Below are positions 23,646-44,216 of a stretch of DNA of 64,000 nt, in pieces (positions within the stretch are counted from its first letter, which is position 1; the number at the start of each line of letters is the position of its first letter). A program made the position numbers and the translations under genes. This stretch comes from Burkholderiales bacterium (GTDB lineage Bacteria > Pseudomonadota > Gammaproteobacteria > Burkholderiales > Burkholderiaceae_C). The notes beneath the pieces are model-generated. The model was not told the origin of the DNA. It ran no database searches and saw nothing but the letters and a program-made list of their open reading frames with translations. Where the stretch lies: positions 7,588 to 71,587 of the forward strand of contig JABEVE010000004.1 in the NCBI GenBank assembly GCA_013044035.1, given 5' to 3'.

Positions 23646-23666
23646 TGGTGGGGAGGGGGACTCGAA
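23646..23666 (-). repeat. Distal att site: displaced copy of tRNA-Leu 3' end with 2-bp deletion
   Basis: TGGTG--GGGAGGGGGACTCGAA versus TGGTGCCGGGAGGGGGACTCGAA at 44130-44152. Confidence 0.9.
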
Positions 23667-23707
23667 AAAATCACGCAAGTCCTTGGCACACAAAGCAAAA
23701 TACGCTT

Positions 23708-23740
23708 CCAGTAACTCAGACTTACTCCCCGACTTACTGG
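23708..23740. repeat. Putative integrase arm-type sites at the distal end
   Basis: CCAGTAAC at 23708 and CTTACT at 23721 and 23733 (12-bp spacing); same CAGTAAC word recurs at 43931-44014. Confidence 0.65.
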
Positions 23741-23872
23741 AAAAAAGGCGGAAAATTTATCCGCCCCAATCAAACTTTGGTCATCAGGCCGTTGCGCGGG
23801 ATTATAGACCACGGCATAGGGGAATTATTGCGCACGCTTGCGTAAGAATTGGAACCTGATAGAGTTATGAAC

Positions 23873-24199
23873 ATGAACACCTTGCAGGCCAAACTCACCC
23901 AAGCAGCCGGCGCGAAATACCGCGCCCAGGCCGACTTTGGCATGAGGTTTGGAATCTGCAGGATGCTTTTTATGCCGCGTGGCCTTGGCGGCGGCGACCT
24001 GCTGGCCTTGGGCGCTGCCGCGGCCCTTGAGCCAAAACAAATCGCCGAGGCTCTTGCTGTGGCGAGCCTGAAAGCCAGCCACCAGCACGCGATGCCACCG
24101 CCGCCACCGGCCATCGGCATGCGCGCCTTGGCGTCGCTTGCCCTGACTCCCCGAATCCTGGCTCAAAAGCCCATCGCTACCCCGTCTCGCGCGGGGTAG
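23873..24199 (+). CDS. Hypothetical protein, possibly a leaderless regulator
   Basis: ORF with TTGCGT-N16-TAGAGT (23838-23865) 7 nt before the ATG and a terminator after it; no recognised domain. Confidence 0.45.
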   Translation: MNTLQAKLTQAAGAKYRAQADFGMRFGICRMLFMPRGLGGGDLLALGAAAALEPKQIAEALAVASLKASHQHAMPPPPPAIGMRALASLALTPRILAQKPIATPSRAG

Positions 24200-24220
24200 G
24201 CCTCTTTCTTTCATCTCAGT

Positions 24221-24259
24221 AAAAAGCCGCCCCGCGCACCGTGCGTCGGGCGGCTTTTT
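24221..24259. terminator. Bidirectional rho-independent terminator
   Basis: AAAAAGCCGCCC...GGGCGGCTTTTT. Confidence 0.8.
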
Positions 24260-24339
24260 GCTGTGCGCCGCCCGCCCGGCCGCGTGGGAGTGACGACCTA
24301 AAACCATCTTTTGGCGCACTGATTTTCACAGGTGTCGCG

Positions 24340-24555
24340 ATGGAAAACGAAGTGAAACGTGGCCTGGCTGAGCCAGCAGAGGCCCGGGCTTTTTTGAGGG
24401 TGAGCAGCACCACTTTGTGGCGGGCTCAGCAGGTCGGGGCACTGGTGCCAGTGAGATTGGGCCGGCATCTGCGCTATCGCTGGTCTGACTTGGAGCGCAT
24501 TGCCAGCGAGGGCTTGCCAAGCCTGGCCGGGGTCAAAAGGGGGGGCAAGCAATGA
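24340..24555 (+). CDS. AlpA/excisionase-like HTH protein
   Basis: 71 aa, EARAFLRVSSTTLWR..LVPVRLGRHLRYRWSDL winged-HTH pattern; heads the replication operon. Confidence 0.8.
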   Translation: MENEVKRGLAEPAEARAFLRVSSTTLWRAQQVGALVPVRLGRHLRYRWSDLERIASEGLPSLAGVKRGGKQ

Positions 24556-24764
24556 GCGGTGGCGAACGCAATCGCAATCGGTTCGCCACCGCGCGGGAGG
24601 TCGAAGCCTTGCGCCAGCGCATGGCGCGGGCCGCGCTCGAAGCCTTGTCGCAGGAGGCCCGCGCCGCGGCACTTGAGGCCGCCGAGCTCGGCGACGCCCT
24701 CGGCGAAATCGTGGCCTTGGCTTGGCTGCTCGAGGTCGGCGCCGACATGCGGGGGCTCACATGA
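24552..24764 (+). CDS. Hypothetical protein
   Basis: ATGA-coupled to neighbours on both sides. Confidence 0.6.
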   Translation: MSGGERNRNRFATAREVEALRQRMARAALEALSQEARAAALEAAELGDALGEIVALAWLLEVGADMRGLT

Positions 24765-25219
24765 CCGCGCCCACCCTCACCCAAAGGCTGAAAAGCCTCA
24801 TGCGTAACGCCCGCCGCCAGGGGGGCAGCCAAGGCCCCAAGTCGTGCGCGTCACTCGCAGTTGACAAGCAGGCGCGCAAGCTCGACGCCGAGATGACGGC
24901 TGCCATCCAAGACGGTGACACCAACCATGAGCTTGAGGCCCGGCGCGACCTGCTGGCGCAAGCCAGGGCGCTGTATTCGACTTCCTGGCTCTCCAGCTCG
25001 GCGCGCTGCACGATTCGCCGCGCCCAGCAGCTGCTGGCGCAGCGCGTGGTGTGGCTGGCGCGCTGCGGGGACATGTGGGGCTTCGGCGACCTGCCCGAGC
25101 TGCGCCAGCGTGCGCTACGCCTTGCCCAGCAGGCCGAGCAGGCCAAGGTGGCGGTGCCCATGGCCGCAGGCCATCAGCACTTGCAGCTTGAGCTTTTTGA
25201 GGTGGAGGCAGCCCAATGA
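24761..25219 (+). CDS. Hypothetical protein
   Basis: ATGA-coupled to upstream ORF and to repA. Confidence 0.6.
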   Translation: MTAPTLTQRLKSLMRNARRQGGSQGPKSCASLAVDKQARKLDAEMTAAIQDGDTNHELEARRDLLAQARALYSTSWLSSSARCTIRRAQQLLAQRVVWLARCGDMWGFGDLPELRQRALRLAQQAEQAKVAVPMAAGHQHLQLELFEVEAAQ

Positions 25220-26118
25220 GAATCGACATTGGTTCTGCTTTTGAGAATGAGCCGCCACCACTCGATTTCGTTTTGCCAGGCTTGCTTGCTGGCACTGTCG
25301 GCGCCTTGTTCAGCCCTGGAGCAACAGGCAAAAGTTTCCTGCTGCTGGAGGCGGCAATGGGGATTGCGTGCGGCGTGGCCGGCGGTGATTTGCTGGGTTT
25401 GAAGATGCACACCGGGCGCGTGGTTTATCTCGCGGCAGAAGACCCGGCGCCGGTGTTGAAGCATCGCGTCCACGCGATGGGCCGGCACTTGCCACCAGCC
25501 GCACGCGAAGAAGTCGCGGCGAGCCTGGAGATTGAATGCGTCATTGGTAAGCGCATGAATCTCATGGAAGAACGTCAACTCGAGCAGCTTTGCAAAAAAG
25601 TGGAGGGAGCGCGGTTGCTCGTGATCGACACAATCAGCCGAGTCCACACGCTCGATGAAAACAGTTCATCTGACATGGGGCAACTCCTTGCCGCGCTTGA
25701 GTACCTCTCGGCAGAGAGCGGGGCGGCGGTCGTCTTTGCGCATCATGTGGCAAAAAGCGCGGTGCGTGACGGCCAGGGCGACCAGCAGCATGCAGCCAGG
25801 GGATCTAGCGCGCTTACAGACAGCGCACGCTGGGGCGCTGCGCTCACTCGGATGATGCAAGAAGAGGCCAAGAAGCTAAGCGACGACCCCACAAAAATGC
25901 GCCCGATTGGAGAAGCTTCGAGGCATTGGTACGTGCGTATGTCGGTGCCAAAGAACAATTATGCCGAGCCAATACCCGATCAATGGTTCGTGCGCGGAGC
26001 GGGCGGGGTTTTAGTGCCGGCCACGTTGCTTGAGGTAGGCGGACATCCAGATTCGGCGGCCAAAACAAATAGCTATAAGGTCGGCAAGGATGGGGGGCGA
26101 AATGCAAACCCCTTCTAA
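25216..26118 (+). CDS. repA: IncQ/RSF1010-type replicative helicase RepA (AAA_25)
   Basis: PPPLDFVLPGLLAGTVGALFSPGATGKS, YLAAEDP, LLVIDT, VFAHHVAK, QQHAARGSSAL, KNNY match RSF1010 RepA motifs. Confidence 0.9.
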   Translation: MRIDIGSAFENEPPPLDFVLPGLLAGTVGALFSPGATGKSFLLLEAAMGIACGVAGGDLLGLKMHTGRVVYLAAEDPAPVLKHRVHAMGRHLPPAAREEVAASLEIECVIGKRMNLMEERQLEQLCKKVEGARLLVIDTISRVHTLDENSSSDMGQLLAALEYLSAESGAAVVFAHHVAKSAVRDGQGDQQHAARGSSALTDSARWGAALTRMMQEEAKKLSDDPTKMRPIGEASRHWYVRMSVPKNNYAEPIPDQWFVRGAGGVLVPATLLEVGGHPDSAAKTNSYKVGKDGGRNANPF

Positions 26119-27220
26119 GCCAAAAGGAGTGCGGCGCAAGCGCCTGCCGGCGGCGGCGCGGGCCGACATGCAGCGAACGCGGCAGGTCGCACGGCATGAG
26201 ATGGCCCTGGGGCTGATGAGCATGTTCCGCCCTCTGCCCGATGGGGCGCAGCGCCGTGAGGTGCGCATCGAGCAGAAATTCGCGGGCGGCCTGGTGCGCA
26301 TCATGGGCGTGGAGATGAGCCAGCTTGAGCAAGGCGTGTTTCTCGCCTTGCTCGCCATCGCGGCGCGCGGTGGAAGTCTGAAAACCGCGCTCGATGCTGG
26401 GCTGTTGCCAGGCTTGCCGCACCAAAATGCCCCCAAGGATGCCAAGCCCGAACAGAACATAGCCGGGGCCGCGCAGACCATCGAAATCAAGACTTCGCTT
26501 GCAGAGCTTTGCCGGGTTGCGGGCCTATCAGACCGGCCCGGCAGTAATACGAGGGAAAGCGTCAGGCTGGCATTCCAGCGGCTCGCGATGATCACGGTCT
26601 ATGCCGAGGGCGGCAATGGCGCCTGGGGTATCACACACCTGATTGCCGGGGCAATCGGGCGGGGAGATGAGGCGGGTAGCGTCGTCGCCAGGTTGAATCC
26701 GCGCAGCACTGCTGCGGCGCTGGGGGGACGGAGCTACGCGCCCATATCGATGCCGGATTACAGGTCTCTGCCAACGCCCACGGCTCGCGTGCTTTATGCC
26801 TGGCTTTGCTCATGGTTTGCAGGTCGAACTGGCGCGCGGCTGATCGGCCTGGACAAGCTCGAGGGGCATGTGTTCGGCGCGATTGCCGAGGACCGCAGGC
26901 GGCGCAGCGAGCGCCGTGCGCAGATCAAGAGGGCGCTCGAAGCCATTCAGAACTGCGGCAGCCAATTCAACTGCGCCATCCTGGGCGAGCAGGCCAGCAT
27001 CACCCGGGAATTTGAGCCCGGCGTTGAACCTGAACTTCTGGTACGCCGAGCGCCGGACACTGATACGCCGAGCGCCGGACAGTCCCCCCATGAAAAAAAC
27101 CCCGTACAAGTAGCTGCTACAAGTAGCAGCAGCGCAGTGCTGCGCGCTGATCGCTTGCACTGCTCTGAAAACCAAAAAGACAAAAAGACGGGGCAGACGG
27201 GGGAGGAATTTGCAACATGA
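26102..27220 (+). CDS. repC: IncQ-like replication initiator RepC (divergent)
   Basis: Overlaps repA end; RHE..GLMSMFRPL, VARLNPRSTAAALGG, PISMPDYRSL..TARVLYAWLCSW resemble RSF1010 RepC blocks. Confidence 0.75.
   Translation: MQTPSKPKGVRRKRLPAAARADMQRTRQVARHEMALGLMSMFRPLPDGAQRREVRIEQKFAGGLVRIMGVEMSQLEQGVFLALLAIAARGGSLKTALDAGLLPGLPHQNAPKDAKPEQNIAGAAQTIEIKTSLAELCRVAGLSDRPGSNTRESVRLAFQRLAMITVYAEGGNGAWGITHLIAGAIGRGDEAGSVVARLNPRSTAAALGGRSYAPISMPDYRSLPTPTARVLYAWLCSWFAGRTGARLIGLDKLEGHVFGAIAEDRRRRSERRAQIKRALEAIQNCGSQFNCAILGEQASITREFEPGVEPELLVRRAPDTDTPSAGQSPHEKNPVQVAATSSSSAVLRADRLHCSENQKDKKTGQTGEEFAT
27167..27213 (-). repeat. Left arm of imperfect inverted repeat flanking the primase gene
   Basis: Reverse complement contains CCCCCGTCTGCCCCGTCTTTTTG, matching 28195-28231. 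Confidence 0.6.
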
Positions 27221-28194
27221 ACACCACCACCAACCCCAGGCAAGAGCTCGATGCCCTGCGCCACCTGCCGCCCCAGGGCGTGGCTGACCTGCTCGGGCTA
27301 ACCCACGACCAAGCTGCCCAGCGCCGCCATGGCGGCGCCGGCTATACCTACTGGCACCTGCCGGACGGCACGCTCATCACCGTGCGCATGGGCCGCTCAG
27401 GCTGGGTCTGGCACCCGACCCAGCGCGACGACGACGGCGGAGGCGACTGGCTGGCTCTGTACCAGCACCTGCATCCCGGCGCAACCCTGGGCCACGCGCG
27501 CAAAGCCCTGCGCCAAGCCCTGGCGGGCGGCCATGCGGCGCAGCAGCGGGCTTCCGCGCCCCTGCTGGCGCCCCAGGCGGCCACCGCGACCGTGGAGCCG
27601 CCCAAGCCTTTGAAGTTGTGCGAACCGCCCGCGTGGGCTGTGGACTATCTGCAGCGCGAGCGCGGCATCCCCATGTCCACCATCGAGCACGCGCTGATGC
27701 ATGCGGCCGTGTCAGGCCATATGCCCGACCTCAAGGCCGTGCACCTGGCTTTCCCACACAGCCAGCGCGACCAGACCGTGACTTGGGCGGAATTGAGGGG
27801 GCCGCTCGAAGCTGATGGAACGCGCGGCAAAAAGGCGAGCAGGGGTGTCAAGGGCCTTTGGATTCTCCCCCCAGAGGGGGAGAGCCGCCACATGGTTGTG
27901 ACTGAAGGCGCCATCAAAGGCCTGGCGCTGCATGCCCGGCTTGCCCAGGCCTCAAAGCCGGCCTGGATCGTGAGCACCGGGGGCAATCCTGGGCAGCACC
28001 AGCAGCAGATGTTGGCCTGGCTGGCCGCCGAGCTTGGTATCAGCACCCTGGCCCTGGCCCAGGACGGCGATGACCCAGGCCATCACCAGGCTGGCCGCCT
28101 GGCCGCCACCCTGCGCGATGCGCGGGGTCTCAAGGTCGTCCGCATGGCGCCACCACCGGGGTGCAAGGGCTGGGACGACTGGATTTCGCCCTGA
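27217..28194 (+). CDS. Toprim-domain primase-like protein (DUF3991/Toprim type)
   Basis: GDWLALYQHL, YLQRERGI, VVTEGAIKGLA, VSTGGN, LAQDGDDPG Toprim motifs. Confidence 0.8.
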   Translation: MNTTTNPRQELDALRHLPPQGVADLLGLTHDQAAQRRHGGAGYTYWHLPDGTLITVRMGRSGWVWHPTQRDDDGGGDWLALYQHLHPGATLGHARKALRQALAGGHAAQQRASAPLLAPQAATATVEPPKPLKLCEPPAWAVDYLQRERGIPMSTIEHALMHAAVSGHMPDLKAVHLAFPHSQRDQTVTWAELRGPLEADGTRGKKASRGVKGLWILPPEGESRHMVVTEGAIKGLALHARLAQASKPAWIVSTGGNPGQHQQQMLAWLAAELGISTLALAQDGDDPGHHQAGRLAATLRDARGLKVVRMAPPPGCKGWDDWISP

Positions 28195-28232: not shown

Positions 28233-28249
28233 TTCGCCGCCGACTGAAT
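28233..28249 (+). promoter_or_regulatory. Island motif TTCGC-N8-GAAT, degenerate copy
   Basis: TTCGCCGCCGACTGAAT about 54 nt before ATG 28302. Confidence 0.5.
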
Positions 28250-28301
28250 AGAGGTAGGCGCCCAATCAGCGCCTCCCCCACTTAACCACCAGGAACCCAT
28301 C

Positions 28302-28772
28302 ATGACCACCACTATCACCCATCCAAACCTTCAAAATCAAATCGACAACCTCGCCCGCCGAATTTATGCCGAAAATTATCTGCGTTCGCGCGGCGACAAA
28401 ATCGGCTTATTCGGAGCGCTGAAGGCCTGCAATTTTCAGAATTTCCACCAGTTTTTCGCATCGGGCAATGTGGATTATCAGAAGATACCCGAAGAAATCC
28501 AACGGGCTGTTTTCGCGGCCACCGTGGAAATCGCCCGGATCGAGGCCGAGAAACAAAACCCCGGCACGCCGCGCCACTTCCATATCACCCAGAAGCACAA
28601 CGGCGGGTATGAGATCGAGTATTGGAGCGATGCCGACCGCGCATTTATCTCGGAAACGCTGAATGCAAAAGAGAAAGCCTTGCTGCACGTTCTGCTCGGT
28701 GAGATTGCCGACCGTCGCCGAGTTAATCCGGCAACTCAATTACCCGAGCCGACCAACCCAACTCAGCATTAA
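28302..28772 (+). CDS. Hypothetical protein
   Basis: 156 aa ORF with AGGA RBS; more AT-rich than host genes. Confidence 0.7.
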   Translation: MTTTITHPNLQNQIDNLARRIYAENYLRSRGDKIGLFGALKACNFQNFHQFFASGNVDYQKIPEEIQRAVFAATVEIARIEAEKQNPGTPRHFHITQKHNGGYEIEYWSDADRAFISETLNAKEKALLHVLLGEIADRRRVNPATQLPEPTNPTQH

Positions 28773-28786
28773 ACAGGAGTATCCAA

Positions 28787-28939
28787 ATGGAAAAGAACTT
28801 GCGCTTTTGGCTGCCGATGCTGCTAACCATGCAGATTATACAAGCCATATTCATGACCTATTTGCTGTCGCCCACACCGACGCTTGCGCAATTGAATCAC
28901 GCGCACGCCGTCATTTTCAACCAGGAGCGCGGCAAATGA
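28787..28939 (+). CDS. 50-aa small membrane protein (below ORF-track cutoff)
   Basis: AGGAG RBS; MEKNLRFWLPMLLTMQIIQAIFMTYLLSP...; stop overlaps next ATG. Confidence 0.65.
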   Translation: MEKNLRFWLPMLLTMQIIQAIFMTYLLSPTPTLAQLNHAHAVIFNQERGK

Positions 28940-29163
28940 TTTACATCGAACTCGAAATCACGCAGGAAGGCCTGGCGCTGGCAACGGTAGAGCACTACCA
29001 CTCCCCCGGCGCGTGCAGCTACCGCGCCGCCCACGTCCTGCCGCCTGACCTGGCCGAGCAGGCCAAGCAAATCGGCGACTTCCTGCTGCAGGACTACTCC
29101 AAGCGCGCCAGCCTGCCCGAACTTGGTTATCAGGCGCCAGGCGCTTCGCCTGCCGCTGAATAA
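28936..29163 (+). CDS. 75-aa hypothetical protein
   Basis: ATGA-coupled start, MIYIELEITQEGLALA... Confidence 0.6.
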   Translation: MIYIELEITQEGLALATVEHYHSPGACSYRAAHVLPPDLAEQAKQIGDFLLQDYSKRASLPELGYQAPGASPAAE

Positions 29164-29190
29164 CCTCATCACATCCATCCGGAGCAAATC

Positions 29191-29388
29191 ATGTTCATGA
29201 CCAAGGCCTTTCAAAACAAACAGCAATACATCCTCGCCATCATTATTCGCCTCGCATTTTTCGCCAGCGGCCCGCTGCTTTTGCAGTCGCACCCGCTGTA
29301 TTTGATTGTCTGGATCGGCGGCCTCTACGCGATGTTTTTCCACCGCTGGGGCTGGCCGGTGTATCGCCCCGCACCCAAGCAGGAGTAA
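29191..29388 (+). CDS. 65-aa two-TM membrane protein
   Basis: GGAG RBS; hydrophobic YILAIIIRLAFFASGPLLL and LYLIVWIGGLYAMFF. Confidence 0.65.
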   Translation: MFMTKAFQNKQQYILAIIIRLAFFASGPLLLQSHPLYLIVWIGGLYAMFFHRWGWPVYRPAPKQE

Positions 29389-29391
29389 GCC

Positions 29392-29747
29392 ATGCTCGAC
29401 AAAATGGACAAAATCAGGGTGGCACATTTTCGCATCCGCGTCACCCTGTTTTGCATGATTTCGGCGCATTACTCGCGGGCGGGGGTTATCTCGCGCACGA
29501 GCAATTGCTGGCGCCTGCCTTTTCTTATTTGCTCGGCTCGGTATTGAATGCCTGGGGCGCGGGTGGCTGGTTTATCCAGCACACGCACGGCCCCTTTGCT
29601 GTGGCCGCCTTGTTTTATCGGAGCATGCAGCCGGGCGGATTTGGTTGGGCAAAAGCACTGGAAGCGGCTGGGGCAGGAGCGTTTCTCGGTCTGCTGGTCC
29701 CGGTTTCGATTTTCAGCATCAAGAAACAAGGAGTTGAAAATGCTTAA
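29392..29747 (+). pseudogene. Probable frameshifted small membrane protein gene
   Basis: RBS and ATG at 29392 are out of frame with the hydrophobic ORF 29451-29747; one extra A in the run at 29401-29404 would join them. Confidence 0.4.
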
Positions 29748-31323
29748 ATTTCTGAGGGCGCTCAAAATGTTTGGGCTGATGTTTGGCGCTGGCTTTGCCG
29801 CATATATTCTTTTTTCTTTATTCGGCCACCCTCAAGCCGGCGCTGGGATTTTCGTGGCGGCGTTTTTGCTCGCCGGCGTTTTGGTCTGGACTGAGTTCTT
29901 CGCCGCGCCGGCGCCGGCGGTGCGTTCTGGGATTCGGGACGTGAGCGAGGATGCGGCGTATCTGCGCACCCTGGCCCAGGGCTTCGACCCGGAGCAGTTC
30001 ATCGACTTGCGCAAAGGCATCTTCATTGGCCTGGATGGCAACCGCAAGCCCATCTATCTGCCTCTCCAGACGCTCGACAAAAATCACCTGGAAATCTTGG
30101 GCGAGAGCGGAGTGGGCAAGTCGTCGTTGGCGGGAGTGCTGTTGAGCCAGCTCGCTGCATCGGGCGAAGCGGTGATCGTGTTCGACCCCAAACCGGACGA
30201 GAAACTGCCTGGCGTGCTGGCACGCCAGGGCGAAAAGCACGACTTTCCGGTCGTGGTGATCGACCTGCGGCACACGGCCAGCTTCCCCCAGATCAATCCA
30301 TTCCATGGATGCCGACCAGACCAGGTGGAAGAGCTTTTGCAGGTGGCCTTGGAGCTCGGCAAAACCGGCGACGCAGGGGTGGATTTTTATCGCGGTGGCG
30401 ATCGCGAGGCAACCTCATGGATTGCCGAAGCCGTGGCCGCAGACCCCTCCCGCAGCCTGCCTGACATCATCAAGGCGGCGAGTGATGATGAGGCGATCAC
30501 CGAGAAAGAAAACCTGTGGCGCGAGCTGCGGCAGTTGGGCCGCATCAAGGCCTTTTCGACGCGCGAGCAAGGCATCGACCTGGCGGCGTTGCTAGAGCAG
30601 CCGGGCGGCGTCGTGCTCTATGTGATGGGCTCGACGACCAAGTTGGAAATCGGCTCGGCGCAAAAGCTGCTTTTGCAGCGCGTGCTCCAGGTGCTGGAGG
30701 ATCGCAGCGACAAGTCGAAGCCAGTGGCCTTGTTCCTAGACGAGCTCAAATACCTGTTGAGTCCAGCAGCCCTCAGGGCCGCAGGGACTATTCGTGACCG
30801 CAATTCGCACCTTGTATTTGCGCATCAAAGCCTCGGTGACTTGGACGACTGCCCGGGCTTGAGCCCCAAGGCTGTGCGGGGCGCGATCTGGGGTAACAGC
30901 GGCATCAAGTTCGCGTACAAGATGCTCGACAGCGCAACGGCCTTGGAGCTCTCGCGCCTGGCCGGCGCGTCGCGCGCCGACGTGCAGACGATGAGCAACA
31001 CGGCCAACGACAACGGCGGAAGCACAAACACATCATGGACCCAGGCGGCCCGCGAGTTCATGCCGCCCCACATCTTCAGCCACCTGCCCAAGCCGGCAGG
31101 TGGCGAGGCATCAGTGGGTGTCGTGTTCGGGCTTGGGACCGCGTTTTATCTGTCCACCCGCTGGCTCCAGACCGGCGAAACACCCGCGCCGTTGCGCGTC
31201 GAAGAGCCGGCCGACCAGGCCGACGCCGCACCGATTTCGCATGCCGCTGAATCAGGTCAAGAGGCACCCGAAGCCCAGGCCGAAGCGGCCCGCGCTGACA
31301 GCCTCGAAGACTTGTTGAAGTGA
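29740..31323 (+). CDS. mobB: Type IV coupling protein, CloDF13 MobB-like
   Basis: Two N-terminal TMs, Walker A GESGVGKS, VIVFDPK, Walker B LFLDE, FAHQSLGDL; directly before a MOBC relaxase. Confidence 0.8.
   Translation: MLKFLRALKMFGLMFGAGFAAYILFSLFGHPQAGAGIFVAAFLLAGVLVWTEFFAAPAPAVRSGIRDVSEDAAYLRTLAQGFDPEQFIDLRKGIFIGLDGNRKPIYLPLQTLDKNHLEILGESGVGKSSLAGVLLSQLAASGEAVIVFDPKPDEKLPGVLARQGEKHDFPVVVIDLRHTASFPQINPFHGCRPDQVEELLQVALELGKTGDAGVDFYRGGDREATSWIAEAVAADPSRSLPDIIKAASDDEAITEKENLWRELRQLGRIKAFSTREQGIDLAALLEQPGGVVLYVMGSTTKLEIGSAQKLLLQRVLQVLEDRSDKSKPVALFLDELKYLLSPAALRAAGTIRDRNSHLVFAHQSLGDLDDCPGLSPKAVRGAIWGNSGIKFAYKMLDSATALELSRLAGASRADVQTMSNTANDNGGSTNTSWTQAAREFMPPHIFSHLPKPAGGEASVGVVFGLGTAFYLSTRWLQTGETPAPLRVEEPADQADAAPISHAAESGQEAPEAQAEAARADSLEDLLK
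31236..31252 (+). promoter_or_regulatory. Island motif TTCGC-N8-GAAT upstream of mobC (within mobB 3' end)
   Basis: TTCGCATGCCGCTGAAT, identical to copies at 33321 and 38462. Confidence 0.6.
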
Positions 31324-37440: not shown

Positions 37441-37447
37441 ATCAATC

Positions 37448-37791: not shown

Positions 37792-37808
37792 TTCGCCTGG
37801 CGATGAAT
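37792..37808 (+). promoter_or_regulatory. Island motif TTCGC-N8-GAAT, degenerate copy
   Basis: TTCGCCTGGCGATGAAT about 59 nt before ATG 37866. Confidence 0.4.
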
Positions 37809-37865
37809 GGCAGTGAAGGCATCGGTCAGGCCCGCGTTGGCGAACTGACCCATTGAACTGAAAGG

Positions 37866-38174
37866 ATGACTGAAATGGCTAACTTGGAAAAGATGTCTGA
37901 GAACCTGCGGGCCGCACTTTCGCGGTCGGGGCAGGCCTCGATCGATCTGCACGCCTCGAATGATGACCGCGGCCTGAAGGATTTGATCATCGTTGAACGC
38001 GGTGGCGGCCAAATCGCGGGCGCGAGGCCGCTGGGCAACGTGCACATCGGAATCAATCGCGCGCCGACCACCAGGGCGCTCATCAGGGCGCAGCTGCGCG
38101 AATTGTTCGCGGCGCATGGCTTGACTGGCCGCGATTTTTTTGATGATGAGCCCATCATTTACGAATACGTCTGA
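37866..38174 (+). CDS. Hypothetical protein
   Basis: 102 aa with AAAGGA RBS. Confidence 0.6.
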   Translation: MTEMANLEKMSENLRAALSRSGQASIDLHASNDDRGLKDLIIVERGGGQIAGARPLGNVHIGINRAPTTRALIRAQLRELFAAHGLTGRDFFDDEPIIYEYV

Positions 38175-38230
38175 TCACGCAGCCCGGCCATCGCGCCGGG
38201 CATCACCAGCACCGCCGCCAGGAGCAAGCC

Positions 38231-38446
38231 ATGACCTACAAAACCATCACCCGCGCCCAATTTCTCGCCGAAGCTCGCGCGTGGGACATCAAGCGTCGCG
38301 CCATGCGCAGGGCCGCGTTTTTCGAGGCGATCTTCAACACATTCATGGCCGTCTTCAGCATCGTGTTCATCGCCTTGTCCTGCGTCGCCATCGCCGGCCC
38401 CGGCCTGCTGGCCCTGGCCGCCTTTTTCGGCATCGCCCCGACCTGA
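38231..38446 (+). CDS. 71-aa membrane protein
   Basis: AGGAG RBS; basic N-terminus and long hydrophobic C-terminal half. Confidence 0.65.
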   Translation: MTYKTITRAQFLAEARAWDIKRRAMRRAAFFEAIFNTFMAVFSIVFIALSCVAIAGPGLLALAAFFGIAPT

Positions 38447-38461
38447 TCGCGCCGCCCGCGT

Positions 38462-38478
38462 TTCGCATGCCGCTGAAT
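38462..38478 (+). promoter_or_regulatory. Island motif TTCGC-N8-GAAT
   Basis: TTCGCATGCCGCTGAAT, then hairpin, AAGGAG RBS and ATG 38530. Confidence 0.65.
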
Positions 38479-38529
38479 CACCATGCCGGCGCGTGCCGGC
38501 ACACCACACACCAACCAAGGAGCATCACC

Positions 38530-39042
38530 ATGCAACACACCAAAACCATCCTCACCCTCTCCAGCCTGGCCCTCGCCCTGGCCCTGGGCGGCTGCGCCGG
38601 CGTGCCTCCGGGCATGGGAGGTCAGTATCAGTCTTCGGCCTACAACTACAGCACCAGCCAGGCCCAACAGGTCCAGCAGGTGCAGCTGGGCACGGTGCTG
38701 GCCGTGCAGCAAGTCGTCATCCATGCCGGCCAAGGCGTGACCGGCGCTGGCGCGGGGCTCGGCGCCGTCGCAGGCGGCTTCGTGGGCAGCCGTGTCGGTA
38801 ACGGCAATGGGTCCACGGTCGGGGCCGTCATCGGCGCTCTTGCAGGCGCTGCTGGAGGCAACATGGTGGCGGGTAACGCTTACCAACAGCCCGGGTTGCA
38901 GATCACGGTGCGACTGGACAACGGCCAGACCATCGCCGTCACGCAAGCCTCCGATGTGCCCGTTCGAGCCGGGCAACGTGTCGAGCTCTTGGGTAGCCCC
39001 TACGGCTGGAACTCAACCGCCCGTGTCGTTCCCATCGGTTGA
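38530..39042 (+). CDS. Glycine-zipper 2TM outer membrane lipoprotein (SlyB/Pcp-like)
   Basis: Lipobox LGGC; GAGLGAVAGGFVGS..GAVIGALAGAAGG; C-terminal LQITVRLDNGQTIAVTQ..GQRV. Confidence 0.85.
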   Translation: MQHTKTILTLSSLALALALGGCAGVPPGMGGQYQSSAYNYSTSQAQQVQQVQLGTVLAVQQVVIHAGQGVTGAGAGLGAVAGGFVGSRVGNGNGSTVGAVIGALAGAAGGNMVAGNAYQQPGLQITVRLDNGQTIAVTQASDVPVRAGQRVELLGSPYGWNSTARVVPIG

Positions 39043-39057
39043 TCCCGACCCGCGCGT

Positions 39058-39074
39058 TTCGCATCCGCCTGAAT
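39058..39074 (+). promoter_or_regulatory. Island motif TTCGC-N8-GAAT
   Basis: TTCGCATCCGCCTGAAT just after upstream stop; AAGGAG RBS and ATG 39110. Confidence 0.65.
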
Positions 39075-39109
39075 ACCAGTGCCGGCGCAACCAACCAAGG
39101 AGCCTCACC

Positions 39110-39529
39110 ATGCAACCCATCCAAACCACCAAACCCGTCATCACCCTTGCCCTTACCCTGGCCCTGGCCGCCGCCTTCGGCGGCTTCTGGGTGGGCCGTA
39201 ACCAAGGCCAGGAACAGGCCAGGCAACAGGTATACGAGCTCGCCAAAGAAGCCAATCCACTGTGGCGGTTCGGTGGCCACCAAGCCCCGACTAAAGACTC
39301 TCAAACTCTGAAACTCAGGGTCGCGCAGGGGAATATTCGGGCGGCGCTCACCCTGTCAGATCGCTACCTGATTCAGGCCTCGAATACATCAGGAAAGGGC
39401 AGCCATGATGACCATGAGATCAAACTTTTACTTGAGGCTTTCCAAGCCCAGGACCAGGCCTACTCAATCCTGTATCAAAACATCCTCCGCCTGGCCTCCC
39501 CGGACCATAAGCCCTGGCCGATCTTCTGA
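39110..39529 (+). CDS. Hypothetical protein with N-terminal signal/anchor
   Basis: MQPIQTTKPVITLALTLALAAAFGGFWVG leader then helical soluble domain. Confidence 0.7.
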   Translation: MQPIQTTKPVITLALTLALAAAFGGFWVGRNQGQEQARQQVYELAKEANPLWRFGGHQAPTKDSQTLKLRVAQGNIRAALTLSDRYLIQASNTSGKGSHDDHEIKLLLEAFQAQDQAYSILYQNILRLASPDHKPWPIF

Positions 39530-39540: not shown

Positions 39541-39664
39541 CCTAGGCCCTAGGGCCTAGGATTTCCAAGGGGAAACCCTTTGAAAATGGCATTTCGTAGG
39601 AATTTTTATGACAGACACCCAATCCTAGGGCCTATTACCTAGGGCCTAGGTCCTAGTTCCTAGG
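39541..39664. repeat. CCTAGG array flanking an AT-rich spacer
   Basis: CCTAGG at 39541, 39548, 39555, 39624, 39638, 39645, 39659; variants CCTATT 39631 and CCTAGT 39652; 7-bp period. Confidence 0.85.
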
Positions 39665-40044
39665 ATTCTATTTGTAACCAGCCAGCCGAAGGCTGGGCAG
39701 GGCCGCATGGCCCGGTGGCTGGGGTTCCGGGGCCGCATGGCGGCCCCTGCAGGCCCGGTTTTCCTGGCTTCCCAGCTTCCCCCAACTTCCGACCAGCCGA
39801 CTTGCTGCAAAAAAATCGCTGGAATGATAACAGCAGTTATCATGCATGCAATCTCGCGTACGCGGTGCAATGCCGCAAAAGATGACACGATAGGAAGCGC
39901 TAGGAGCCGTTAAACCACGCCGGCCTAGGCTACCCACAGGACACACCACCGCGAGCCAGCCAGCGGGCCGCTATTTCGGCCGCTTGCACATCACCCCAGC
40001 TTCACCGCCGCAACGTGGGTGTACCGCTTGAGCTTGTCCAGGTG

Positions 40045-40069
40045 AAAAGGCGCCCCGAGGGCGCCTTTT
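40045..40069. terminator. Bidirectional terminator
   Basis: AAAAGGCGCCC-CGA-GGGCGCCTTTT. Confidence 0.75.
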
Positions 40070-40133
40070 CAATTGCTTTGATTCTCGGAACCGGTGGTTA
40101 TTGGCAAGTAGTGAATTGTTAAGTGTCGTGTCG

Positions 40134-40159
40134 AAAAAAAGCCGCCTTGCGGCGGCTTT
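40134..40159 (-). terminator. Terminator downstream of the pilin gene
   Basis: A7-GCCGCC-TTGC-GGCGGC-TTT; reads hairpin plus U7 on minus strand. Confidence 0.8.
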
Positions 40160-40176
40160 AAGTCCCGGTAATTCTA

Positions 40177-40710
40177 TTACTGGCAGCTCGTTGGCAGATA
40201 TTGTTGCGGAATTGTCGAAGTGGCATTCGCGCCTGTCGAAGCGGCGGTGGTGCAAGTCCATTTGGCGCCACCATTCGTCGTTTCCATAATCAAGGTTTTC
40301 CCAGCAATGGCGCTGCTGATGCCACTTGTACCGGCAGCGTTAAATGTCATTTTCAGATCAAGGCCGTAATCAGTCCCAGCTGCAGCGCCGGCGGGAAGTG
40401 TTCCAGCAAACGGAGTTGCAGCCATGGAGTTAACATAACGACCGCTTTGAGTCTGAACATCAACGCACGTTGTCGTTGTGCAAGTGGCACCTGCAACATT
40501 AAGTGTCAGATTTTGAAACCCACCATTTGTATTGAAATATTCCATGAGTGAGGTTTTTGCGCCATCGGATAAGCTCAGGCCCTCAGCAACCTGCGCTCTT
40601 GCGGTGTATTGCATGTATTGAGGAATGGCGATGGCCGCCAAAATGCCGATGATGGCCACCACGATCATCAATTCGATCAGGGTGAAGCCCTGTTGCAGTT
40701 GTTTCTTCAT
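40177..40710 (-). CDS. pilA: Type IVa major pilin (PilA-like), island-borne
   Basis: Class III signal [27 protein letters not shown]; [10 protein letters not shown]; C-terminal WTC...LPTSC disulfide loop; AGGAG RBS. Confidence 0.93.
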
Positions 40711-40830
40711 CAAAAACTCCTAGGTGAGTTGGTTGTGTGCTGCGGCTTCTGCGCCATGAAAAACACCGGTATAGACGCTTGGCTGCAGCAGGGTTGGCGT
40801 CAATCCCCCCTGAAGGGGCAGGTGAAGTCG

Positions 40831-40846
40831 AGCAAGCGCCGTGCCA
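40831..40846 (-). promoter_or_regulatory. Sigma-54 (-24/-12) promoter for the pilin
   Basis: Minus strand reads TGGCACGGCGCTTGCT, matching TGGCACG-N4-TTGCW. Confidence 0.85.
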
Positions 40847-40906
40847 TGTGCGAATGCGTGCAATAGTTCACAGAAGCTTGCTTTCGGGCTTTGCGTGATG
40901 GAGCCA

Positions 40907-40959
40907 TGTCGGGGCGATAAGCCGACACGGTTCCGTCATGTCGCATAAAAACAGCGACA
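40907..40959. promoter_or_regulatory. Two tandem TGTCG-N11-CGACA dyads; candidate bEBP (PilR-type) enhancer
   Basis: 40907-40927 and 40939-40959, further CGACA half-site at 40976; about 60-115 bp upstream of the -24 box. Confidence 0.65.
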
Positions 40960-41023
40960 TGACGCGGTACTCGCGCGACATGCTTGCCATCTATGATGAC
41001 TCTGTCGTGACCCTGAGGAGGAG

Positions 41024-41563
41024 ATGCTTATGATGAACAAGCCACCAACTGACCAACCATCTTCGTGCAGCATCCAGACGGCATCCATTCTGTTGGGGCG
41101 CAGCAAACGAACCTTGCAGCGCTGGTGTGAAGATGGGACGTTGCATGTTGTTGTGCAGTGTGGCCCGGGTAGGGCCCAACGCCAGCTCATCGACCTGACG
41201 CAGATTCTGGAGATGTTCGGGCCATGCCCAGAGCCGGACTTTACTGAGTTGGTCGTTGCAGCCGACGAAGGCGAGGCGGATGCCCAGAATGACTTGGGCA
41301 TGGTTTTGCTGCAAGAAGGCAAAGCGGAATCGGCTGTGGCGTTCTTTCAGGAATCGGCACGGCAGGAGTACCCGGAAGCGATGCACTGGCTATCCCAGTG
41401 CTACATGAAAGGGCTGGGAGTTGAGAGAGATGAAAACCTCGCGATGATGTGGCTCAACAAGGCTGCCGCACACGGGCATGTCATCGCCAAGGCGCAGGCT
41501 GACGCCATCCGCGCCATGGCCTTGCAGCAGTTACAGGCAAGCGGTCCACCGGCGCCTCAGTGA
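41024..41563 (+). CDS. N-terminal Xis/MerR-like HTH fused to Sel1 repeats
   Basis: IQTASILLGRSKRTLQRWCEDG; DAQNDLG, EAMHWLSQCYMKGLGVERDENLAMMWLNKAA. Confidence 0.8.
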   Translation: MLMMNKPPTDQPSSCSIQTASILLGRSKRTLQRWCEDGTLHVVVQCGPGRAQRQLIDLTQILEMFGPCPEPDFTELVVAADEGEADAQNDLGMVLLQEGKAESAVAFFQESARQEYPEAMHWLSQCYMKGLGVERDENLAMMWLNKAAAHGHVIAKAQADAIRAMALQQLQASGPPAPQ

Positions 41564-41566
41564 ACG

Positions 41567-41842
41567 ATGCCTGCGCCGAAGGATGTTCCACCGCTGCGCA
41601 AGCCAGGAAGGCCGCGCAAGGGCGAGGTTCGACTGGAAACCACCGATGCAGAGCGAGCCCGGCGCTATCAGATGCGTAAGCGTGCCGAGGCTAAACAGGA
41701 CGGACGTGTGGAAGTGCTGTTGTTCGTGCCCAGGCAGGCCGCGGACCGACTGACCGAACTCAGCATTCGCCGAGGTTGCACCAGGGCCGAAGTGGTGGAG
41801 AAACTTATCCTGCAGGCGGATGAGTTCAGCCGTGGAGAGTGA
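41567..41842 (+). CDS. Small DNA-binding protein (AT-hook-like GRPR plus RHH-like C-terminus)
   Basis: KPGRPRK, AERARRYQMRKR, DRLTELSIRRGCTRAEVVEKLI. Confidence 0.6.
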   Translation: MPAPKDVPPLRKPGRPRKGEVRLETTDAERARRYQMRKRAEAKQDGRVEVLLFVPRQAADRLTELSIRRGCTRAEVVEKLILQADEFSRGE

Positions 41843-41987
41843 CGCGCAATCATGGCCTCTTCAAAGTCAACGGCCCTATTCTGAGGCGTTTTTCACCTCA
41901 CGCACCTGCCGACAGCGGGCCCCTGGCACAAGAAATGCTTATCTCAAATTGTTTCACCGTTGTTGTACTTCTCATCTCCGGGACCTT

Positions 41988-42011
41988 AGCCCGCCTTGCG
42001 GCGGGCTTTTT
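41988..42011 (+). terminator. Rho-independent terminator
   Basis: AGCCCGCC-TTGC-GGCGGGCTTTTT. Confidence 0.75.
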
Positions 42012-42084
42012 CTTGGTGGGATGTTGAATCCCAAAAACCAGACGTTTTGCGCCAGATTGTCTAGTTTCCACGGTGCGGCGCACC

Positions 42085-42396
42085 TCACGCCGCCACAGCA
42101 AGCTCACCGAACGTCGCTCGTGCGCACAGGTCGGGAATATAAAGACCTTCGTCGAGATCGGGCATGTAGAGATCATGCCCAGTGCCTTCAATTTGCACGC
42201 TGACAAAGCCTTGTGCTTGCGCCTGCCTGACCGCTGGTGGCAGCAGCGCAACTGGAACGGCAACCTCCGCACCGTTGTCGAATTCCAGAATTAACCGGTC
42301 GTTGACAAACCGCGCGGAGATGGCCCTGGGTTGGATCGCGTCGAGGTGGCGCCCGTGTTCCAGGGCTAGCTTGATGGACTCATCAGAAATCGCCAT
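42085..42396 (-). CDS. DUF2442-like protein, putative antitoxin
   Basis: ISARFVNDRLILEFDNGAEVAVP, IEGTGHDLYMPDLDEGLYIP. Confidence 0.75.
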   Translation of the reverse strand: MAISDESIKLALEHGRHLDAIQPRAISARFVNDRLILEFDNGAEVAVPVALLPPAVRQAQAQGFVSVQIEGTGHDLYMPDLDEGLYIPDLCARATFGELAVAA

Positions 42397-42631
42397 GTTG
42401 CGTTCTCCATGCTTGGCAAAGCGTTTGCAGGTGCTCATCGACGGCAACCATCAGGTGGCGCAATGTGGGGGCGTCAATACCGCGCGCCTCTTGCGCCACG
42501 ATGGGTCCACCAGGGCAGTTGAGCAGGATCTTGGCCCGCCCATCGGGCGAGACGGCATGCACATGGGCTGGTCGATGATCATTGGTGTAGATCATGATCC
42601 GCCAGCCGCCAATCCGCAAGACCGTGCCCAT
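42383..42631 (-). CDS. DUF4160-like protein, putative toxin
   Basis: MGTVLRIGGWRIMIYTNDHRPAHVH; overlaps DUF2442 gene. Confidence 0.8.
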   Translation of the reverse strand: MGTVLRIGGWRIMIYTNDHRPAHVHAVSPDGRAKILLNCPGGPIVAQEARGIDAPTLRHLMVAVDEHLQTLCQAWRTQHGDF

Positions 42632-42716
42632 GCGCGCATTATCCGAGCTTTTGCGCCAGTTTCGCTGCTTCGATGTGGGTGAAGCGCTTGAGCATCGCCA
42701 GGCTCTTGTGGTCTTG

Positions 42717-43928
42717 TCACGCCCGCATCTTCACCACATCAGCCCCAGCCTTGAGCTTGTCCAGATAGTCCCCCCAGGCCTGCATCATCGCTGCCCGCTC
42801 TTCGAGGTAGCGGGTGCGGTTGTAGGCGCGGCCCAGTGGGTCGCGCACCGCGTGGGCGAGCTGCATTTCGATGACCTCGACCCGATAGCGCAGCTTCTCA
42901 TCCAGCAGGGTGCGCGCCGTGGCACGGAATCCGTGGCCGGTGACAACATCCCCGCCGAAACCCAGGGTTCGCAGCGCAGCAGTGACCGCGTTCTCACTCA
43001 TGCATCGCTCTCGCGTGCGCGGCGACGGAAACACGAAGCGACTACCACGCGTGAAGGGGTGAAGGTCCTGCAAAATCTTCCTGGCCTGCAAGGGCAGGGG
43101 CACGATGTGAGGCTCGCGCATCTTCATCTTTTCGCCAGGGATGCGCCACTCGTTACGGTCGAAGTCAATCTCTGACCACTCGGCCTGTCGCAGCTCACCA
43201 GGCCGCACAAAGAGCAGCGCTTGCAGATGGAGCGCCGCCCGGACCACTGGCCCGCCGGTGTAGCCATCGAACGCCCGCAGCATCTTGCCCAGCTCAGCAG
43301 GGTCCAGCACGGCGGCGCGATGCTGCTCCACAAGCGGCTTGAGCGCCCCGCGAAGGGCAGGGGTAGGATCAACATCAGCGCGGCCCGTGGCGACCGCATA
43401 GCGCATCACCTGGCCGATGATCTGATGCACGCGCCTGGCCGTTTCGCCCAGGCCACGCGCCTCGATGCGCTGGAGCACGTTGAGCACGTCAGGTGCGCGC
43501 AAGCCGCGCACGGACTTTTGGCCGATGATGGGGAATGCGTTGGCTTCAAGGCGCTTGATGAGGTTGCCGGCGGTGTTACTGGACAGGGTAGGGGCGCGCC
43601 TGGCGTGCCATTCCCTGGCGATGGCCTCGAAGGAATCGGAGACCACGCCCGCCGCCTTGGCCTTGCGCATGGCCGAGGGGTCGATGCCATCGAGCAACTG
43701 CTCGCGAATCTCCGCAGCGCGATCACGAGCACGCTTGAGGGACACAGCAGGATAGACCCCGAGTGACAAGGTGCGGTCCTTGCCGTGGAAGCGGTAGTCC
43801 ATGCGCCACCACATTGCGCCGTCAGGCCGCACGATGATGAAAAGGCCAGCGCCATCGCTCAAGCGATAGGGCTTTTCTCCAGGCGCTGCGCGCTTGAGCG
43901 CCGTGTCCGTCAACAGGTTGTTTGCCAT
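42717..43928 (-). CDS. int: P4-type (IntA-like) tyrosine integrase
   Basis: Arm-binding KPYRLSDGAGLF..LSLGVYPAVSL; catalytic VRPGEL, HGFR, LAH, AYNR; next to tRNA. Confidence 0.95.
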   Translation of the reverse strand: MANNLLTDTALKRAAPGEKPYRLSDGAGLFIIVRPDGAMWWRMDYRFHGKDRTLSLGVYPAVSLKRARDRAAEIREQLLDGIDPSAMRKAKAAGVVSDSFEAIAREWHARRAPTLSSNTAGNLIKRLEANAFPIIGQKSVRGLRAPDVLNVLQRIEARGLGETARRVHQIIGQVMRYAVATGRADVDPTPALRGALKPLVEQHRAAVLDPAELGKMLRAFDGYTGGPVVRAALHLQALLFVRPGELRQAEWSEIDFDRNEWRIPGEKMKMREPHIVPLPLQARKILQDLHPFTRGSRFVFPSPRTRERCMSENAVTAALRTLGFGGDVVTGHGFRATARTLLDEKLRYRVEVIEMQLAHAVRDPLGRAYNRTRYLEERAAMMQAWGDYLDKLKAGADVVKMRA

Positions 43929-43930
43929 TC

Positions 43931-44014
43931 CAGTAACCCCCCCCCCAGTAACTTTTGCCAGTAACCGTTTTCCGGTCGCTGGAGTTACTGCCTAGGTTAC
44001 TCCCTGAGTTGCTG
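43931..44014. repeat. Two opposed triplets of CAGTAAC arm-type sites, with a C10 tract at 43937-43946
   Basis: CAGTAAC at 43931, 43946, 43959; inverted GTTACTG/GTTACTC/GTTGCTG at 43984, 43996, 44008. Confidence 0.75.
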
Positions 44015-44060
44015 GCAAGACAAGAAATCTGCCGCAACCTTGGGAAACGTCGAAACCTCC

Positions 44061-44073
44061 TAAACCCTTGATT
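44061..44073 (-). promoter_or_regulatory. IHF binding site in the att arm
   Basis: Minus strand AATCAAGGGTTTA matches WATCAANNNNTTR; lies between arm sites and att core. Confidence 0.65.
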
Positions 44074-44129
44074 TTTCAAGAAAAACCGACGCGATTAGAA
44101 ACGTCGGGGAACTGTTGGAAATGTGCTAC

Positions 44130-44216
44130 TGGTGCCGGGAGGGGGACTCGAACCCCCACGCTTTTAAGGGCGGCGGATTTTGAGTCCGCTGCGTCTACCG
44201 ATTCCGCCATCCCGGC
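44130..44216 (-). tRNA. tRNA-Leu (CAA), 87 nt with encoded CCA
   Basis: GCCGGGA/TCCCGGC acceptor stem, anticodon loop CTCAAAA, long variable arm, GGTTCGAGTCC T-loop. Confidence 0.97.

Follow-up and report, generated by a model that had tools for sequence, protein, structure and literature searches.

A mobilizable element in a tRNA-Leu gene of Thiomonas and the envelope genes that probably belong to its family core

Why does an integrated element without a mating pore of its own carry a whole set of genes for cell-surface proteins? This question is raised by an island of about 20.5 kb in a Thiomonas genome (assembly GCA_013044035.1, contig JABEVE010000004.1, positions 7,588 to 71,587; this whole stretch of 64,000 nucleotides is called the window, and island positions refer to it). 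The island (borders 23646-44152) is inserted in a tRNA-Leu(CAA) gene. It encodes an integrase, replication proteins, a coupling protein, and a MobC relaxase, as well as a PA14-like anchored protein, a PagP-fold barrel, a YadA-type adhesin, and a glycine-zipper lipoprotein. An earlier note, made from the sequence alone, regarded the genes of these envelope proteins as cargo that re-tools the host surface. As described below, they seem instead to be a constant part of a family of elements. I give a probability of roughly 0.6 to the whole reading set out below, its shown and its inferred parts together, in which the island is an intact mobilizable element and its envelope module would serve its own spread.

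Are the envelope genes shared by related elements? I performed a family survey in which the MobC homologues made up 36 clusters; the contexts of the relatives (designated by locus numbers such as L053) were fetched and their proteins were compared. The homologues whose source is named belong to Thiomonas, Rugosibacter, or unclassified metagenome-assembled genomes of Betaproteobacteria. In L053, L054, L060 (T. arsenitoxydans 3As), L062, and L064, the MobC proteins are 57-72% identical to that of the island. Downstream of the genes for the coupling protein, MobC, and an 80-residue protein, these five loci have genes for a PA14-like protein (49-58% identity), a PagP-fold protein (49-55%), and the lipoprotein (46%), and three of the five have a YadA-type gene (45-54%). 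An element of Thiomonas sp. X19 is collinear with the island, with 80% nucleotide identity across 29392-37029 in one stretch, and beyond this stretch it has orf94, orf71, the lipoprotein gene, orf139, and a region of CCTAGG repeats. At both ends of this X19 element there are perfect 47-bp repeats of tRNA-Arg(TCT), and its integrase, of 370 residues, is unrelated. The closest relative, L057 (MobC 88% identical), sits at a tRNA read as tRNA-Thr. Its repA-repC-primase block has been replaced (RepA is 26% identical and the primase is of the RepB type), and the flanking genes are 69-92% identical. L065, on a mine-drainage contig, has the same integrase (99% identical) at the same tRNA-Leu site and has TrwC/TrwB instead of MobC/MobB, but it still carries the PagP-fold, orf94, orf71, and glycine-zipper lipoprotein genes at 78-85% identity. 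Thus, the comparisons with X19, L057, and L065 indicate that the envelope module is constant while the integration, replication, and relaxase modules are interchangeable. In no fewer than seven relatives, which differ in integrase, tRNA site, replication genes, and even relaxase, envelope genes accompany the mobilisation module. These elements form a family of modular build with its centre in Thiomonas and other Betaproteobacteria of acid mine drainage, and I am fairly sure that the envelope module is its conserved core. The co-occurrence of the envelope cassette with the backbone, which the earlier note proposed to look for, was indeed found in the relatives, and its description of the backbone as a hybrid agrees with the swapped replication block of L057 and the swapped mobilisation module of L065. 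In contrast, its word cargo does not suit the envelope genes: no other module of the family is as well conserved, and they have a promoter-like motif in common with the mobilisation genes. The word does suit the block of pilin, HTH/Sel1, ribbon-helix-helix (RHH), and toxin-antitoxin genes, which is absent from X19 and L065.

With what kind of locus is the envelope module associated? The complete X19 genome was mapped for PagP-fold, coupling-protein, integrase, and VirB4 genes. It has 11 full-length coupling-protein genes, four of which lie within 4-31 kb of a VirB4 gene and seven of which have no VirB4 gene within 100 kb. A PagP-fold gene was found 4-11 kb away in all seven loci without VirB4 and within 30 kb in none of the four loci with VirB4 (Fisher's exact p = 1/330, my own calculation for this one genome). 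This distribution bears on the alternative that the envelope module is host-adaptive cargo, which would provide adhesion, biofilm formation, and outer-membrane hardening (by lipid A acylation and the lipoprotein) for life in acid mine drainage. It is true that all the relatives are from Thiomonas or mine-drainage Betaproteobacteria, that adhesins and PagP-type enzymes are classic host-fitness factors, and that the cassette is absent from distant MobC elements of other habitats. However, one copy per cell should suffice for such a role, and yet X19 holds eight PagP-like copies plus one partial copy. Moreover, seven of these copies each lie beside a separate pore-less coupling-protein gene, one further copy is an orphan, and none lies beside a conjugative cluster, and the mobilisation and envelope genes stand under one motif that is restricted to the element. 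Host adaptation as the role of the module is thus rather unlikely, though it deserves serious consideration. Concerning the host genome of the island itself (G000), further partial PagP-fold copies were seen at C9:22143-23693 and C58:5139-5585 (35% and 56% identity). Contig C9 also has a YadA-type fragment (48%) and, about 15 kb off, a coupling-protein gene, while C58 has an integrase gene about 1.5 kb off. There appear to be other cassette-bearing elements in this genome.

What do the mobilisation genes and the envelope genes have in common? A 19-bp near-palindrome, ATTTCGCC-N6-GCTGAAT, lies upstream of both alike. As TTCGC-N8-GAAT, it occurs nine times within 28233-39074 of the island, always on the gene strand. 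Eight of the nine copies lie 29-66 nucleotides before a gene start, and the copy at 31236 is inside the 3′ end of the coupling-protein gene, about 120 nucleotides before mobC. The genes thus headed are orf156, orf65, mobC (at the distance just given), the PA14-like, PagP-fold, and YadA-type genes, orf102, the lipoprotein gene, and orf139. The whole host genome (7.4 Mb, both strands) has 34 matches; 25 of them are outside the island, where 28 are expected by chance. The motif heads homologous genes in L053, L054, L057, L060, L062, L064, L065, L067, and X19, with 42 copies in nine elements and 8 in X19 (50 in 10 elements). The consensus across the elements is gcgcATTTCGCCAnCCGCTGAATa. Most copies are followed by a GC-rich hairpin, and the ribosome-binding site and the start codon, where they could be located, are about 29-76 nucleotides downstream of the motif. 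Since in L065 it also heads a NikA-like gene of the TrwC module, the reader of the motif is not tied to MobC.

What kind of signal might this be? The near-dyad ATTyMGC-N5-GCnnAAT suggests a dimeric regulator. Sigma-70, sigma-54, sigma-32, and extracytoplasmic function (ECF) promoters were considered and none fits by eye; TTCGC-GAAT is not a -35/-10 pair, because the spacing is too short. Judged from the sequence, the motif is a promoter-associated candidate operator. Several of the points at which the homology between the island and L065 breaks fall at motif copies (34657, 35268, and 37782), which fits cassette exchange by recombination at shared motif leaders. In the leaders at 35317-35409, 38510-38602, and 39090-39182, the ribosome-binding site, the start codon, and the signal-peptide region are homologous between otherwise unrelated exported proteins (60-76% identity over 93 nucleotides). 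Apparently, the motif was copied together with complete leader modules. The features of the island are summarised in Table 1.

Table 1. Features of the island and its integration site, in window positions. X19 and the locus numbers denote related elements; aa, amino acid residues; nt, nucleotide.
Feature	Position	Strand	Remarks
attL	23646-23666		TGGTG--GGGAGGGGGACTCGAA; displaced copy of the tRNA-Leu 3′ end, slightly decayed
HTH_17 (AlpA/Xis-like) small DNA-binding protein	24241-24555	+	likely start 24337
Two small conserved ORFs (70 aa, ~152 aa)	24552-25219	+	69-81% identical in L057 and X19
RepA, AAA_25 helicase, IncQ type	25216-26118	+	AAA_25 E 9e-36
RepC-family initiator	26090-27220	+	PF06504, 54 bits
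Toprim_2/DUF3991 primase-like protein	27217-28194	+	73% identical in the X19 element; RepB_primase instead in L057
Small conserved ORFs upstream of the coupling-protein gene (orf156, orf166, transmembrane protein orf65, orf98)	28302-29747	+	
Type IV coupling protein, MobB-like	29740-31323	+	T4SS-DNA_transf and TraG-D_C domains
MobC (MOBC) relaxase	31374-32114	+	PD-(D/E)XK motif
79-aa protein after mobC	32126-32365	+	ribbon-helix-helix-like by eye; homologue in all close relatives
Conserved non-coding stretch after the mobC operon, candidate origin of transfer (oriT)	32366-33320		no preferred reading frame; also delimited as 32366-32930
Membrane-anchored PA14-like protein (275 aa)	33382-34209	+	
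mem109 (109 aa)	34188-34517	+	two transmembrane-like segments; homologues in L053, L054, L060, X19
Predicted PagP-fold 8-stranded outer-membrane barrel (182 aa)	34710-35258	+	
YadA-type trimeric autotransporter adhesin	35337-36809	+	YadA_head, YadA_stalk; 88% identical in X19
Conserved stretch, coding status uncertain	36806-37447		80-85% nt identity to L065 and X19
Small ORFs orf94 and orf102, transmembrane protein orf71	37448-38446	+	
Glycine-zipper lipoprotein (Rick_17kDa_Anti family)	38530-39042	+	46-85% identical in relatives
orf139 (139 aa)	39110-39529	+	N-terminal hydrophobic segment
Two CCTAGG arrays around a 63-bp AT-rich core	39541-39664		possible replication origin (oriV), partition site, or arm sites
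Island-specific accessory insert	39858-42716		absent from X19 and L065
Type IV pilin	40177-40713	minus	N-methylation motif and pilin domain
HTH_17/Sel1 protein	41024-41563		within the accessory insert
RHH-like protein	41567-41842		within the accessory insert
DUF2442 and DUF4160 pair, toxin-antitoxin	42085-42631	minus	
P4-type tyrosine integrase	42717-43928	minus	Arm-DNA-bind_3, Phage_int_M, Phage_integrase domains; 99% identical in L065, same site
attR	44130-44152		TGGTGCCGGGAGGGGGACTCGAA; 3′ end of tRNA-Leu(CAA)
tRNA-Leu(CAA)	44130-44216	minus	only tRNA found by ARAGORN in the window
Motif starts	28233, 29145, 31236, 33321, 34644, 35270, 37792, 38462, 39058	+	

Is the island a true insertion, and is it intact? 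The att repeat is imperfect; it consists of a 16-nucleotide exact core plus TGGTG, with a 2-nucleotide gap in attL relative to attR, and the block of identity begins in the T-loop of tRNA-Leu. The left flank has hisS, purA, and a phosphoribosyltransferase gene. When the two flanks were joined in silico, a single match of 1516 nucleotides (96% identity, end to end) was found in a genome of the same genus (G004), and the empty-site junction falls exactly at the 3′ end of the tRNA. Thus, the island is a true insertion with exact borders and not the product of a chance repeat, and the tRNA-Leu integrative element with att repeats that the earlier note had proposed is borne out by the empty site, the repeats, and the integrase. 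In the usual model, attL is the displaced host copy. On this model, the 2-nucleotide gap of attL is probably due to decay after integration. The same gap, together with the lack of pore genes, would also be expected if the island were a decaying, immobile remnant, and the exact MobC and RepA proteins are in no other record. However, the core genes align full-length with their X19 homologues without frameshifts, the 16-nucleotide att core, with the T-loop in it, is undamaged, another contig (L065) has an integrase that is 99% identical, and the lack of pore genes is the defining trait of mobilizable elements. It is therefore quite improbable that the island is a remnant. In X19 (G014), the same tRNA-Leu(CAA) is occupied by an insert of about 30 kb (C1:3213888-3243895, loci L024 and L025). 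It was considered as a relative of the island and turned out to be unrelated at the nucleotide level; the related X19 element lies elsewhere. Because of this unrelated insert, the tRNA-Leu(CAA) site can be called an integration hotspot. In another genome, G024, the two flanks of the site are on separate contigs. An Rfam scan of the island gave the tRNA only, plus one chance-level match.

How might the island be mobilized? Its MobC scores above the curated NCBIfam cut-off (NF041423, 213.9 bits against 200). The residues D148, E162, E164, and K168, presumably the catalytic ones, are invariant across 16 sequences and follow the PD-(D/E)XK pattern. The island MobC is about 35% identical to the MobC of roughly 1200 small plasmids. 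One MOBC plasmid of the ColRNAI bacteriocin type (CloDF13-like) has a coupling-protein gene directly upstream of mobC, in the same order as in the island, and the two coupling proteins are 30% identical (408 residues, E 8e-37). These matches and the coupling-protein domains confirm what the earlier note had said of a coupling protein and a MOBC relaxase forming a MobB/MobC pair of the CloDF13 kind. The 79-residue protein encoded downstream of mobC has no Pfam match. The conserved non-coding stretch that follows has 81-83% nucleotide identity to L057 and 70-75% to L053, L054, and L064. No VirB4, TrbL, TrbJ, or other pore family was matched in about 50 island open reading frames (ORFs) scanned, so that the absence of a mating pore, also claimed before, holds. 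I have little doubt that the island is an integrative mobilizable element without a mating pore. Could it be a phage satellite of the P4 type or of the phage-inducible chromosomal island (PICI) type instead? A P4-type integrase, an AlpA-like helix-turn-helix (HTH) protein, and a primase would be at home there. This reading was rejected since a relaxase and a coupling protein are present; besides, genes for capsid redirection or packaging are absent and the matches in PHROGs are negligible, so that a satellite is hardly credible.

Which pore might serve the island? The only VirB4 of the host genome is on contig C30, in an IncP-like conjugative cluster (G000 C30:13000-45000, loci L070 and L071) that encodes a topoisomerase, a VirB11-like ATPase, a MOBP relaxase, TrbE/VirB4, TrbL, ArdC, and a TraG-type coupling protein. 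This TraG and the coupling protein of the island are unrelated by BLASTP. The C30 cluster is a plausible helper for the island. Alternatively, the coupling protein, the relaxase, and the envelope module might together be a contact or transfer apparatus without VirB4, partly or wholly free of a classical helper. Its components would be a periplasm-spanning anchored protein with a lectin fold, an outer-membrane barrel, an adhesin, a lipoprotein, and small inner-membrane proteins. I regard such an apparatus as very improbable.

Could an excised circle replicate? The island has the RepA helicase and the RepC initiator of an IncQ-type replicon. The RepB′-type primase of IncQ was not found in the domain scan of the island, where the Toprim_2/DUF3991 protein is present instead, while L057 has a RepB_primase. 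In a plasmid nucleotide search with the island backbone, repA alone gave a match (67% identity to IncQ-like plasmids). The 3′ end of repC contains a tandem repeat of 2 x 22 bp (CTGrTACGCCGAGCGCCGGACA, 27038-27081), which resembles iterons but has two copies only. As for an iteron set at an oriV, this repeat and the CCTAGG arrays were all that was found. The region 39541-39858, which has the arrays, is 89% identical in nucleotide sequence to L065 and is also conserved in X19; in both it lies directly beside an int gene, be this the same as in the island or a different one. The domain matches in Pfam support the P4-type integrase and the RepA, RepC, and primase proteins named in the earlier note. 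Its Xis-like protein is present as an HTH_17 protein, but the match is weak and below the Pfam cut-off (24.3 bits against 27), and no homologue was found among the related elements compared. With this reservation, the int-alpA-repA-repC backbone known from GIsul2-like islands, also claimed earlier, is all present.

What are the envelope proteins? The PA14-like protein consists of an N-terminal helix with a transmembrane segment, a disordered Pro/Ala linker, and a C-terminal beta-sandwich. In the structure model (pLDDT 69), the sandwich matches domains of the yeast adhesins Flo, Epa, and Cea1, PA14 domains inserted in glycosidases of families GH31 and GH3, and modules of the CBM6/35 kind, with E values of 3e-6 to 1e-4 and low TM scores (0.3-0.47). 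Its PA14/CBM-like identity is thus a model-based assignment at the level of the fold. For the 182-residue barrel (model pLDDT 83), the top two structure matches are the PagP structures 3gp6 and 1thq (TM score 0.65-0.67, root-mean-square deviation 3.4-4.0 Å). Neither protein has a Pfam or NCBIfam family match, and for the barrel a profile search of the sequences in the PDB found nothing. Alignment of the barrel with E. coli PagP by hhalign was not significant (E 0.18). This non-significant alignment pairs the invariant H59 and N94-S95 of the barrel with the WH and DS of E. coli PagP, and the Asp of PagP is replaced by Asn; His, Asp, and Ser are presumably the catalytic residues of PagP. Because the sequence-level searches gave no significant link, the claim is limited to the fold; the models support a PagP fold, which is a predicted fold and not an enzyme activity. 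Thus, the PA14-like and PagP-like calls of the earlier note stand as structural matches and not as family assignments. The other envelope calls in it, namely the YadA adhesin, the glycine-zipper lipoprotein, the type IV pilin, and small membrane proteins, agree with domain matches and with transmembrane-like segments in orf65, orf71, mem109, and orf139. It had also noticed that resistance and catabolic genes are missing, and none was found in the island. After the adhesin gene, an ORF for 147 residues (36806-37249) was considered as a gene and rejected, since its 221-residue "homologue" in L065 is rich in Arg, Pro, and Ala and has matches in all three frames. Arg/Pro/Ala-rich ORFs and protein matches in three frames are the reason why 36806-37447 is regarded as uncertain coding. 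Nothing in the island corresponds to the three small genes downstream of the adhesin gene in L053 and L054.

Which genes are the true cargo? In X19 and L065, int directly follows the CCTAGG region. The block 39858-42716 is missing from both and is thus the true accessory insert of the island. The DUF4160 and DUF2442 genes in it are the toxin-antitoxin pair already noted. The pilin gene is an extra major-pilin gene; the host's own pilins are on C40 (two), C66, and C106 (39-48% identity). In the relatives, a slot after the PA14-like gene (L053:9229-10752, L054:12988-14370, and L060:12954-14784) has variable defence-like genes, namely an AAA_21/AAA_15 ATPase, an AAA+ protein with a weak Zeta_toxin match, and a reverse transcriptase with STM3845. 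This slot looks like an accessory hotspot and is empty in the island. It is known that prophage-encoded outer-membrane lipoproteins can protect the host from phages. Does the envelope module likewise act as a shield of the host, against phages or against competing elements, by masking receptors or changing the lipopolysaccharide? The outer-membrane lipoprotein, the PagP-fold barrel, and the small membrane proteins would suit such a role, and the AAA_21/AAA_15, reverse transcriptase plus STM3845, and methylase genes in the adjacent variable slot of the relatives point in the same direction. However, no known exclusion or defence family was matched in the scans with Pfam, NCBIfam, and PHROGs (PADLOC was not among them), the adhesin and the lectin-fold protein are a poor fit to masking, and one would not expect a constitutive shield to be co-regulated with the relaxase gene. 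I consider a shield improbable.

The preferred reading, an intact mobilizable element, may be put as follows. The excised circle would replicate. MobC would nick an oriT, for which the conserved non-coding stretch downstream of the mobC operon is the probable site, and the element's own coupling protein would dock the circle onto the pore that a resident conjugative element provides, such as the IncP-like cluster on C30. A single factor, probably encoded by the element, would bind the motif and switch on the mobilisation and envelope genes together. Given such joint switching, the envelope module would most likely serve the element's own spread at the cell surface, by donor-recipient contact and/or exclusion. 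A transfer-related function of the module (mating contact or exclusion), which would make it a hallmark of pore-less elements, is a tentative proposal and, taken by itself, somewhat less likely than not. Several points weigh against the preferred reading. None of the envelope proteins resembles a known mating-pair, exclusion, or pore protein, and Pfam gave no YadA_anchor match for the adhesin even when E values up to 1 were admitted, although its C-terminus (a Gly-rich stretch and then W at the end) is anchor-like by eye. The distant MobC elements (51% identity or less, in Hydrogenophilus, Methylophilaceae, and Rugosibacter) have no envelope cassette. Multiple cassette copies per genome could reflect proliferation of the elements and not an element-specific function. 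As for the motif, it matches no sigma-factor consensus by eye, and no DNA-binding protein is visibly common to all the motif-bearing elements (L065 lacks MobC and the 79-residue protein). Finally, attL has its 2-nucleotide deletion.

How does the island compare with known systems? It resembles the CloDF13-type module (MobB and MobC of small ColE-like plasmids) in the two-gene order, the MobC family, and the PD-(D/E)XK residues. Unlike these plasmids, it has no bacteriocin genes, and its module is chromosomal and integrase-borne, with a RepA/RepC replicon, the envelope module, and the family-wide motif. The integrative mobilizable elements described as PIME, GIsul2, and IncP-island elements (bioRxiv 10.64898/2026.01.12.698999; review PMC5704250) are like the island in the int / alpA-like / repA(-repC) logic, in the integration into a conserved gene (here a tRNA gene), in the modular build, and in a probable dependence on an IncP-like helper. 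Since trbJ and trbL are core search criteria for PIMEs (bioRxiv 10.64898/2026.01.12.698999) and both are absent, the island is not a PIME as defined. In contrast to PIMEs, it has its own coupling protein and MobC, and its conserved extra module consists of non-pore envelope proteins. The best functional analogy is SGI1, a mobilizable island whose envelope proteins are apparently tied to its own transfer. SGI1 replaces pore subunits of its IncA/C helper with its own TraN, TraG, and TraH and disables exclusion (PMC5704250). While those envelope proteins are homologues of pore subunits, the PA14-fold, PagP-fold, YadA-type, and glycine-zipper proteins of the island have no such homology. In the 2017 review (PMC5704250), a coupling protein combined with a MobC relaxase is listed for no more than a few plasmids and two putative elements of streptococci. 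As summarised there, these putative streptococcal mobilizable elements encode VirD4 and MobC (PMC5357655, via PMC5704250); they are thus integrated like the island, with their own coupling protein and MobC relaxase, and in that summary they differ from it in phylum, integrase, and cargo, and no envelope module is given for them. To the combination listed in PMC5704250, the island adds a chromosomal MobB/MobC element in Proteobacteria.

What does the envelope module mean for the biology of these elements? In this family, surface proteins that are unlike known pore subunits stay with the mobilisation genes while integrases, replicons, and relaxases swap, and in one complete genome (X19) the module marks every pore-less coupling-protein locus and no conjugative one. 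The usual picture of a mobilizable island is that of a small kit for hijacking to which arbitrary cargo is added. Should mating contact or exclusion prove to be the role of the module, hijacker elements would have a new way to influence conjugation, and the module would be a simple genomic marker for such elements in Betaproteobacteria.

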